A stretch of 64,000 bases of DNA from a virus (Duplodnaviria; Heunggongvirae; Uroviricota; Caudoviricetes): positions 1 to 64,000 of IMG/VR virus record IMGVR_UViG_2799113015_000003; one strand, 5' to 3'. The notes beneath the pieces were generated by a model that was not told the DNA's origin, did no database searches, and was given only the letters and a program-made list of their open reading frames with translations. A program made the position numbers and the translations under genes. Below are positions 35,749 through 36,177 of the stretch, in pieces (position 1 is the first letter of the stretch; each line of letters starts with the position of its first letter).

Positions 35749-35754
35749 TCAGGT

Positions 35755-35770
35755 CGACAGGAAGGGATAC
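35755..35770 (+). promoter_or_regulatory. orphan copy of the start-associated motif (CGACAGGAAGGGATAC) not followed by a gene
   Basis: Motif in + orientation; only a 12-codon TTG ORF follows. Confidence 0.4.
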
Positions 35771-35945
35771 TACTTTGCTCGGCCTCCCTGAGTCTCGAAA
35801 CCCATTCTACTGATCCTGGCTTAGATGGAATCCCACAACGGAAATAATGAACCATTTCCGCAGGTCAGGATCTTTCACCCACATGAACCCCTGCGCCATG
35901 TCGTAGCCTCCTAAAAGGAGAGTGCGAACGCAGTGAGCACGCACC

Positions 35946-35995
35946 TCCCGCTAGGGAGGCCCACGCCGGATTGGCGTGGCTGCCCGAAGGGCATC
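35946..35995. promoter_or_regulatory. cluster of three short perfect hairpins in the divergent control region
   Basis: CCTCCCGCTAGGGAGG, CACGCCGGATTGGCGTG and GCCCGAAGGGC. Confidence 0.35.
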
Positions 35996-36073
35996 AACCT
36001 CCAGACCGCAGCGTCCCCACTTGAGCATGGTTCTCGGTGAAATGAATAACCCTTGCAGTCAAGGTATCTCACG

Positions 36074-36102
36074 TTGACATGGAGGTAGTCGTTACGTAAG
36101 TC
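36074..36102 (+). promoter_or_regulatory. candidate rightward promoter
   Basis: TTGACA -35 hexamer at 36074-79, a 17-nt spacer, then TAAGTC. Confidence 0.3.
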
Positions 36103-36177
36103 GGGAACGGTACTAGAGCGCGTGCGCGCGAGCCCGCTACCCACACGAACCCGAAATGCGCTGCAAGACTTTGTGAC

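Follow-up and report, generated by a model that had tools for sequence, protein, structure and literature searches.

A divergent intergenic region as a candidate control module with four promoters and two non-coding RNAs in a MabI/cluster M-type mycobacteriophage genome

The 64,000-nucleotide stretch of viral DNA considered here (hereafter the window; positions 1 to 64,000 of the IMG/VR record IMGVR_UViG_2799113015_000003) contains a gap of probably 516 bp (35662-36177) between a leftward and a rightward operon. Comparison with related genomes gives roughly an even chance that this gap is the central divergent control module of a temperate MabI or cluster M-type phage with four promoters, namely two outer ones that would face the flanking genes (P_left, leftward; P2, rightward) and two inner ones arranged back to back (P_as, leftward; P1, rightward), each of the inner pair probably heading a non-coding RNA. 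One common layout recurs across lineages, comprising the MabI subgroups, the Bongo and Rey groups of cluster M, and an uncultivated viral genome (UViG) designated L078. Architecture, conservation, and covariation were computed, and from the hexamers we infer the transcription starts; RNA ends and functions were likewise deduced. A sequence-only reading of the window had proposed the region as the most likely site of early promoter and operator control and as a candidate place for a small RNA, and on comparative evidence these proposals are supported in part: the gap appears to be the main divergent control region holding promoters and a good place for a small RNA, and the three hairpins recorded in that reading fall inside a conserved, promoter-headed unit that is probably non-coding.

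Across 35300-36700, the window shares 87-93% identity with the Mycobacterium abscessus prophages prophi86-1, prophiT49-2, and prophiGD54-2, whose records run in the reverse orientation, and it is assigned to a cluster MabI/cluster M-type mycobacteriophage genome. These three prophages belong to cluster MabI, whose genome plan resembles that of cluster M mycobacteriophages (PMC8092301; PMC9934374) and whose repressor has not yet been located (PMC8092301). The gap is flanked by the long leftward ERF/Cas4/ClpP operon, which encodes a DUF6197 protein, ERF, a Cas4-type exonuclease, ClpP, SSB, and RepA, and by the short rightward nucleotidyltransferase operon, in which four unknown proteins (the first of 152 aa) are encoded together with an RlaP-type nucleotidyltransferase and an oxidoreductase. 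Gaps of ~560 bp occupy the equivalent place in Bongo, Rey, Reindeer, Nanosmite, Estes, MrMagoo, Skinny, SlimJimmy, and Aziz; that of Bongo separates genes 49 and 50. Measured between the longest open reading frames (ORFs), the gap of the window spans 35749-36177, as the sequence-only reading had described it; a divergent gap is indeed present, but it is probably 516 bp rather than ~430 bp in size, with its left boundary previously set ~87 bp too far right, since GTG 35661 is the most likely start of the leftward gene. In the sole family match of the 109-aa ORF, to PHROG 15756, the alignment begins with residue 31 of the ORF on position 2 of the 87-position profile; the 28 nt 5' of this GTG vary freely in sequence among MabI relatives at constant length; and the GenBank-annotated starts of Bongo and Nanosmite lie at the equivalent distance from the repeat described below. 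The profile fit, the variable spacer of fixed length, and the cluster M starts therefore point to GTG 35661 (35659-35661, minus strand) as probably the real start of the first leftward gene, which would encode an 80-aa protein (35419-35661). Two other candidates, GTG 35748 (the start of the longest ORF) and GTG 35721 (the choice of the GenBank relatives), were dropped on the basis of the PHROG profile and the alignment of relatives. In the homologues prophi86-1 gp67, prophiT49-2 gp65, and prophiGD54-2 gp57, the GenBank start is likely 60 nt too far upstream and falls in a conserved hairpin loop (window 35662-35748; L001 6363-6422, with equivalents in L002 and L003).

The strongest argument for reading the repeats of the gap as putative promoter elements is that one lineage-specific repeat is swapped for another at fixed positions. 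The MabI repeat, yACCCACAyGAACCC, matches the window at 13 sites (up to 3 mismatches) against 2.7 expected, a count reached in none of 100 shuffles, and copies lie at P_left (TACCCACACGAACAT, 35690-35704, minus strand), P1 (CACCCACATGAACCC, 35876-35890, plus strand), and P2 (TACCCACACGAACCC, 36138-36152, plus strand). Cluster M phages carry a different repeat, CCTGTAATC, at identical positions: it was found at all three equivalent places and in the same orientations in Bongo, Reindeer, Rey, and Nanosmite, and at both positions covered by the stretch examined in L078, P_left and P1. The gene-facing CCTGTAATC copies, at P_left and P2, end 28-29 nt before a start codon, which in Bongo and Nanosmite is the one annotated in GenBank. 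A fourth CCTGTAATC copy, followed by GATTCT 17 nt on, lies in Reindeer (L017 1855-1863) between P1 and the orphan motif described below, and the equivalent copy is degenerate in Bongo and Nanosmite.

The distances from these repeats to start codons are narrowly constrained. In the window, the copies at 36138 (plus strand; P2) and at 25865, 22526, and 12090 (minus strand) are followed by 12 nt, a hexamer (AAGACT, TACGAT, TAGACT, and TAGCAT, respectively), 6-7 nt, and an ATG that opens an ORF of 152, 148, 78, and 412 aa, respectively; the repeat-to-ATG distance is 25 nt in the first three and 24 nt at 12090. The P2 element (36138-36180) thus consists of the repeat, 12 nt, the -10-like AAGACT (36165-36170), 7 nt, and ATG 36178 of the first rightward gene, and P_left of the repeat, 15 nt, the -10-like CAGCCT (35669-35674, minus strand), 7 nt, and GTG 35661, which lies 28 nt from the copy at 35704. 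Relatives have CATGCT, CACGCT, CACACT, or GACGCT as the P_left hexamer, with A2 and T6 constant, and at P1 the repeat is followed by 13 nt and TAGCCT. Several repeat copies lie 3' of a terminator hairpin, some of them directly. A repeat in the -35 position followed by a hexamer and a start codon corresponds to the layout of a leaderless-mRNA promoter, and the fixed repeat-to-start-codon distance therefore implies leaderless mRNAs for GTG 35661, which is probably read in this way, and for ATG 36178. In mycobacterial leaderless promoters, a TANNNT -10 element stands 6-8 nt before an ATG or GTG at which transcription itself begins. P_left, P2, and another four copies of the repeat resemble them in having a start codon 6-7 nt after xAnnnT; they differ in having a 15-nt phage element instead of a recognisable -35, and the P_left and P2 hexamers deviate at position 1.

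These features suggest a division of labour among the four putative promoters. The outer ones, P_left and P2, would each use their own repeat at -35, a weak xAnnnT 12-15 nt on, and a start codon 6-7 nt later, and, given these weak -10 hexamers, they may depend on a phage factor for which the repeat is the recognition site. The inner promoters, P1 and P_as, lie back to back with good TAnnnT hexamers and could be readable by the host holoenzyme. Further promoter-type repeats occur in the long leftward operon and the tRNA region, at 12076-12090, 15724-15738, 22512-22526, 25851-25865, and 29853-29867 (all on the minus strand); three of them have an ATG exactly 24-25 nt on and would serve leaderless genes of 412, 78, and 148 aa, and one copy followed by TATAGT lies within the tRNA cluster.

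According to a passage in PMC7953290 that cites Pope et al. (2014, J Virol 88:2461), a hallmark of cluster M is a set of short conserved repeats, CR1-CR4, the last two of which are preceded by stem-loops. Like the window, the cluster M phages with CR1-CR4 fall in the family Vilmaviridae, subfamily Mclasvirinae, and have intergenic repeats, many tRNAs, a tmRNA, and stem-loops upstream of start-associated repeats. The promoter-like repeat of the window and the start-associated motif discussed below are almost certainly the MabI versions of the CR repeats, and the promoter reading may in part have been published before. As far as checked, a divergent control region with repeat promoters is of a known kind, and the two conserved, unannotated candidate RNAs are new. 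The 13 GenBank records examined carry no annotation of any kind, RNAs included, in the gap, and Rfam covariance models run on both strands of 35400-36500 gave no match at E values up to 10, 6C/B11 (RF01066) included.

The sequence-only reading had recorded a rightward-facing promoter candidate, TTGACA-N17-TAAGTC. In a model of the region built on it, this would be a host sigma-70-type promoter for the rightward genes, with the hairpins as operators or pause sites and the start-associated motif as a relic of a lost gene start. The sequence exists (36074-36102, plus strand), with a perfect TTGACA -35 (36074-36079), a 17-nt spacer, and TAAGTC (36097-36102), and its TTG is kept in 10 of 11 MabI sequences. 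As a promoter, however, it is unlikely. TAAGTC lacks the T at position 6, and a consensus promoter scan of 35300-36500 rejected the pair and returned no site at all. The -35 reads TTGACA, TTGAGA, TTGTGA, CTGTGA, or TTGAGG in MabI relatives and is the most variable spot of an otherwise invariant 90-bp block, and in cluster M phages the two hexamers are replaced by TTCTGA and TAACGG. Moreover, ATG 36178 has its own repeat promoter, P2, at the canonical leaderless distance, and the supposed relic is conserved across lineages with little other shared sequence here, so that this account of the region appears very unlikely as a whole. The candidate also overlaps a palindrome, TTACGTAA (36092-36099), and a second, GC-rich palindrome, AGCGCGTGCGCGCG (36117-36130), lies just upstream of P2 as a possible regulator site; the latter is kept in Nanosmite and absent from Bongo and Reindeer.

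The supposed relic is a copy of the start-associated motif that leads into no gene, placed by the sequence-only reading at 35755-35770. It is present as GGAAGGGATAC at 35760-35770 (plus strand), its minus strand reading GUAUCCCUUCC, the complement of the phage ribosome-binding motif. The start motif has 8 matches in the window (up to 3 mismatches) against 1.2 expected, and 8 were reached in none of 100 shuffles; the other motif cores, at 257, 883, 1597, 2806, 3106, 5013, and 37440 (plus strand) and at 26634 (minus strand), lie 3-8 nt before an ATG. The orphan copy contains the core GGAAGGGA(TAC) and has GTCGACA as its 5' extension, where true copies have CACACAC(G) and cluster M orphans have GAGGGG; no ATG or GTG follows it, and the TTG at 35775 opens only 12 codons. 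The motif occupies the equivalent position, in the form GGAAGGGA(A)(A)T, in Bongo and Reindeer (GGAAGGGAATAC), Rey and Nanosmite (GGAAGGGAAATAC), and L078 (GGAAGGGAATCC), where the surrounding sequence is otherwise unalignable between lineages, and no start codon follows it in the cluster M relatives or in L078. The idea of a start signal that had lost its gene is therefore not borne out, since the motif is conserved in cluster M and L078 and sits inside a covarying hairpin after a TAnnnT hexamer on the opposite strand.

This hexamer is the predicted -10 element of P_as (35804-35809, minus strand), with an RNA start near 35796. It reads TAGAAT in MabI (35809-35804 in the window), TACTAT in Bongo, TAGACT in Reindeer, TAAAGT in Nanosmite, TAAGGT in Rey, TACTGT in Estes, MrMagoo, and Aziz, and TACGTT in L078; all seven different hexamers fit TAnnnT, each followed at 7 nt by the opening base of the first hairpin. 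Downstream lies what is probably a P_as-headed non-coding RNA of ~90 nt (35705-35796, minus strand), for which the same three-hairpin fold was obtained in 7/7 lineages tested. The first hairpin (35747-35793) encloses the orphan motif in a stem of ACTCAGG (35747-35753) and CCTGAGT (35787-35793), which is ACUCAGG/CCUGAGU in MabI, GCUCGC/GCGAGC in cluster M, and CCAGGUC/GAUCUGG in L078, and it holds a C-rich segment, UCCCUUCC(CCC). The second, GCGC-AGUC-GCGC (35735-35746), appears in the minimum-free-energy folds and varies between lineages. The third (35709-35734) combines a 9-bp stem with an invariant loop, ACACGACC on the plus strand and GGUCGUGU on the minus strand; its stem has four sequences in four lineages (GCCGAGGG, CUCCCCUGGG, CUCCCUCGGG, and CCCGCCGGG) around the same loop, four pairs being changed on both sides, and it occurs once per genome and ends 5 nt before the P_left repeat. 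In the alignment of the leftward RNA, 96% of cells are paired and 8 of the 17 pairs have changed on both sides, against 48-68% paired and 0-2 two-sided changes in controls with slid partners, and the covariation score is 0.55 against at most 0.16 in these controls. The G.U pairs can form on the minus strand only, and in L078 this strand folds at -48.9 kcal/mol against -36.6 kcal/mol for the other.

On the other side of the gap, P1 is predicted to start an RNA at 35916 or 35917 from the -10 hexamer TAGCCT (35904-35909, plus strand). MabI and Nanosmite carry TAGCCT here, Bongo and Rey TAGTGT, Reindeer TAAGGT, the trio of Estes, MrMagoo, and Aziz TAGAGT, and L078 TACCTT, so that T1, A2, and T6 are constant and the middle positions vary. 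A conserved box, GCAGGTCA (35860-35867, plus strand), is present 5' of the P1 repeat in the MabI and cluster M lineages, and in Bongo it belongs to a five-copy repeat, TCTGTAATCGCAGGTCAG. This third repeat type occurs in the window with GCAGGTCAG at 1560, 4976, and 40448 (minus strand) and in Bongo at 36976, 37866, 60347, and 63848 (minus strand) and 70573 (plus strand), one of the Bongo copies forming the P1 element; it is often antisense to the genes around it. An inverted repeat, CTCCT-aaa-AGGAG (35908-35920), straddles the predicted P1 start and could be an operator over it. At the equivalent place, cluster M has GTCC/GGAC or GTCTT/AGGAC, with the G/C difference at RNA position 6 matched upstream, and considered either as an operator or as an RNA hairpin the repeat fits poorly in L078.

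About 7 nt 3' of the P1 hexamer begins the sequence A(A)GGAsAGTGCGAACGCAGTGAGC, and the first 25 nt of the rightward RNA are nearly invariant across lineages. An 18-mer within it (35921-35938) is exact in 10 IMG/VR loci, the GenBank MabI loci, Nanosmite, Bongo, and Reindeer, with one inserted base in the Rey group and three substitutions in L078; it consists of two 11-nt units, 9/11 identical and one helical turn apart. The predicted core domain (35916-36000, plus strand) is closed by a helix of AGG (35916-35918) and CCT (35998-36000) and contains a GUGC/GCAC helix around the 18-mer, followed by the three perfect hairpins, which are present as the sequence-only reading had reported: CCTCCC/GGGAGG (35944-35959, 6 bp), CCACGCC/GGCGTGG (35961-35979, 7 bp), and TGCCC/GGGCA (35981-35993, 5 bp). 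Three non-overlapping perfect hairpins within 52 nt were found at only two places in the 64 kb, the other being ~38885-38940, near the 3' end of the last rightward ORF (38246-38968), and such a cluster arose in 5/60 first-order Markov simulations of the whole window, which makes it uncommon, yet not decisive without conservation evidence. The loops alone vary among MabI relatives, and one hairpin in cluster M and two in L078, with different stem sequences, take the place of the three. The hairpins would represent a variable central domain (35944-35993) of the rightward RNA.

The cluster M consensus fold has four parts, namely an AGG/CCU closing helix, a GUGC/GCGC helix around an invariant loop, a central hairpin, and a terminator, and window 35916-36000 folds into the same closed domain. 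The central hairpin covaries within cluster M, where GCAACAC/GUGUUGC becomes GCGUCAC/GUGGCGC (A-U to G-C and A-U to U.G), and is replaced by AACCACC/GGUGGUU in L014, an unrelated viral contig; covarying pairs within cluster M number only 2, with different stems in MabI, L014, and L078. In cluster M, the RNA would end ~100 nt from the predicted start, at a 9-bp GC stem, GCGUCCCCC-loop-GGGGGACGU, with a U tract behind it. Assignment to the plus strand rests on the U.G pair in the GUGC/GCGC helix, which is possible on that strand only, on the U tracts of the cluster M terminators, which lie on the same strand, and on the better alignment-fold energy (-35.8 kcal/mol, the opposite strand giving -28.3). 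For the Nanosmite RNA, the fold is 3.0 standard deviations (sd) better than those of shuffles, and a covariance model built from cluster M phages only has a single match in the window, at 35915-36025 (plus strand, 19 bits). These data suggest that the rightward unit is probably a P1-headed non-coding RNA starting near 35916.

That the gap instead hides small protein genes, such as a 35-aa GTG ORF (35933-36040) or the 12-codon TTG ORF, is barely credible. An AAGGAG does stand 12 nt before GTG 35933, and the TTG lies 5 nt after the orphan motif; however, L006 has lost a net 1 nt and Bongo and Reindeer differ in length by 2 nt inside the sole candidate frame, changes that shift the frame between close relatives, the orphan motif has no start codon after it in cluster M, and none of the 7 ORFs in the gap has a Pfam or PHROG family match. 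Both ORFs and the five others were rejected in view of frameshifts in relatives and the lack of a family match. Because these indels break any reading frame, the rightward unit is taken to be non-coding.

A weightier rival, though a decidedly unlikely one, holds that the conserved elements act as DNA, either as operators for a repressor or activator or as part of a replication origin beside the replication genes. It would suit the candidate direct repeats AGTGCGAACGC/AGTGAGCACGC in the window and CTAAGAGTTT, found twice in both Bongo and L014, the palindromes TTACGTAA and AGCGCGTGCGCGCG upstream of P2, the construction of the 18-mer from two similar units one helical turn apart, the G+C content below the genome level at 36030-36115, and the fact that the MabI repressor is not located (PMC8092301). 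The pattern of change in the leftward third hairpin (35709-35734), however, is the reverse of an operator with a free spacer: the loop is invariant, and the arms change yet stay complementary. In addition, several helices contain G.U pairs, which in duplex DNA, or read from the other strand, would become A.C mismatches, the Rey-group insertion of 1 nt between the 11-nt units would be tolerated by an RNA loop, and the cumulative GC skew shows no turn at 36 kb.

It is also conceivable, if unlikely, that the inner promoters exist but serve as tandem promoters that give the flanking operons long 5' leaders instead of yielding independent small RNAs, the hairpins being structures for stability, processing, or attenuation. 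This fits the ends of the two units in the window: no T run follows 35993 (plus strand) or 35709 (minus strand), the sole site of the intrinsic terminator scan being 36064-36051 (minus strand), and even in the Bongo group the U tract lies 6-8 nt away from the stem, so that termination may leak there. The hairpin at 36051-36064 was also considered as a terminator of the rightward RNA and rejected, its stem being broken in L006, L008, and L010. Against leaders stand the lack of a Shine-Dalgarno sequence before GTG 35661 and ATG 36178, from which a leadered copy would translate poorly, the strong terminator between P1 and P2 in Rey-group phages, and the repeat promoter that each operon has immediately downstream.

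If the two units are indeed discrete RNAs, a mechanism can be proposed for the leftward one. It carries the exact 11-nt complement (GUAUCCCUUCC) of a motif found before at least eight genes of this phage, and it might pair in trans with these ribosome-binding sites and lower translation, a masking that would resemble the action of the C-rich loops of the mycobacterial 6C/B11 small RNA (sRNA). In M. abscessus, the C-rich loops of B11/6C pair with purine-rich ribosome-binding sites and repress translation (PMC10470900). Both RNAs would be structured and belong to the same host genus, with C-rich unpaired segments in 6C/B11 (RF01066) and UCCCUUCC(CCC) in the leftward RNA; unlike 6C/B11, the latter has one C-rich segment rather than two, is phage-encoded, shows no sequence or covariance similarity to that family, and has as its complement a phage-specific motif, not a generic G tract. 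The rightward RNA could be a trans- or cis-acting regulator whose invariant 5' domain points to a protein or RNA partner; no site complementary to that domain was found in the window.

Related arrangements exist in other phages. Cluster K mycobacteriophages have start-associated sequences (SAS and their extended form, ESAS), a conserved motif with a ribosome-binding site just before many starts; the motif of the window is likewise the start motif of one phage group and differs in sequence and phage cluster, and we know of no description of an antisense SAS copy inside a promoter-headed hairpin. Short structured RNAs from control regions that base-pair with phage mRNAs include lambda OOP, P22 sar, P1/P7 c4, and P4 CI RNA, and in P4 and P1 an RNA serves as an immunity factor. 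These RNAs arise by processing from a leader or are antisense to a transcript next to them, whereas the proposed targets of the leftward RNA are dispersed ribosome-binding sites up to 35 kb away. The most far-reaching version, in which two divergent regulatory RNAs would replace part of a protein switch, with the leftward one as an anti-ribosome-binding-site riboregulator and the rightward one as an immunity or antitermination determinant, is considered quite improbable.

Several observations weigh against the proposed module and its RNAs. The comparison comprises ~4-5 truly independent lineages, and the structures were derived from the same sequences that were used for counting. At P_left, the repeat-to-hexamer distance is 15 nt, against 12-13 nt in the other copies. 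The third leftward hairpin (35709-35734) has no U tract after it, which leaves the 3' end of the leftward RNA uncertain, and the cluster M terminator has decayed in the window at 36011-36030, where GCGTCCCCAC (36011-36020, plus strand) appears to be a remnant of its 5' arm, the 3' arm and the U tract having been lost; both transcripts may run on into the flanking operons. The match of the cluster M model is weak (19 bits, E about 0.02-0.03) and consists mostly of the invariant 5' sequence, the 158-nt rightward stretch folds only 1.4 sd better than shuffles, and single-sequence folding energies of the window do not separate the strands. As for pairing in trans, part of the complement of the ribosome-binding motif is tied up in pairs within the hairpin that carries it, and although motif genes rank in the top 1-2% by duplex energy with the leftward RNA, some spurious ORFs score as high.

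The rightward 18-mer also occurs in other settings. In L014 (11860-12040), a lower-GC viral contig, two copies of CTAAGAGTTT accompany the 18-mer, a 7-bp hairpin, and a closing helix (CAC/GUG) with compensatory changes; the module has a repressor-like gene (PHROG 1746) immediately upstream and an Lsr2-like gene downstream. The proteins flanking this module have no homologue in the window, and the repressor-like protein has none in the window, Bongo, or Nanosmite. A scan of 596 Gb of reference genomes for the exact 18-mer yielded 40 matches, with ~17 expected by chance, none of them mycobacterial and in unrelated contexts, and its 21-nt form gave 10 loci in metagenomes, mostly unrelated repeats, with no Rfam family at those sites; one metagenome locus, L065, may be a relative. 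The total of matches in unrelated organisms (L018-L057 and L065-L074) is near chance, and some contexts look non-random, including tandem arrays with a 73-75-nt period (L053, L067-L069), a longer core, G-AGTGCGAACGCAGTGAGC-GTATCGR, flanked by short inverted repeats (L039, L044, L051, L053), and one copy that abuts the 3' end of an archaeal tRNA (L026). Elsewhere in the window, ARAGORN called a tRNA-like gene at 15215-15286 (minus strand) with an abnormal two-base anticodon loop (tRNA-???), and the nucleotidyltransferase at 36633-37436 (plus strand) belongs to the RlaP family (PF10127, E = 7e-31), which is associated with RNA repair. Bongo and Nanosmite also encode an RtcB-like RNA ligase, and the combination of RlaP, RtcB-like ligase, tRNAs, and tmRNA suggests an RNA-repair toolkit.

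MabI prophages are common in clinical M. abscessus, and their repressor is not located (PMC8092301). From the promoter map follow specific predictions for these phages: four sites of transcription initiation, two genes with leaderless mRNAs, and two RNAs so far unannotated. It also provides compact promoters and RNA elements as parts for the engineering of M. abscessus phages, and it corrects a gene start, the homologues of prophi86-1 gp67 being probably annotated 60 nt too long. If the leftward RNA does pair with the start motif, the ribosome-binding repeat of cluster M would be an RNA target, two unexplained kinds of repeats, those of promoters and those of start codons, would be linked, and one RNA would set the translation of a whole gene class, comprising at least eight genes in the window and about twenty in Bongo. 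In the far-reaching and quite improbable version mentioned above, the rightward RNA, whose 5' end is nearly invariant between MabI prophages and cluster M phages and is also found in the unrelated L014 beside a repressor-like gene, would be the immunity or antitermination determinant sought in MabI prophages.

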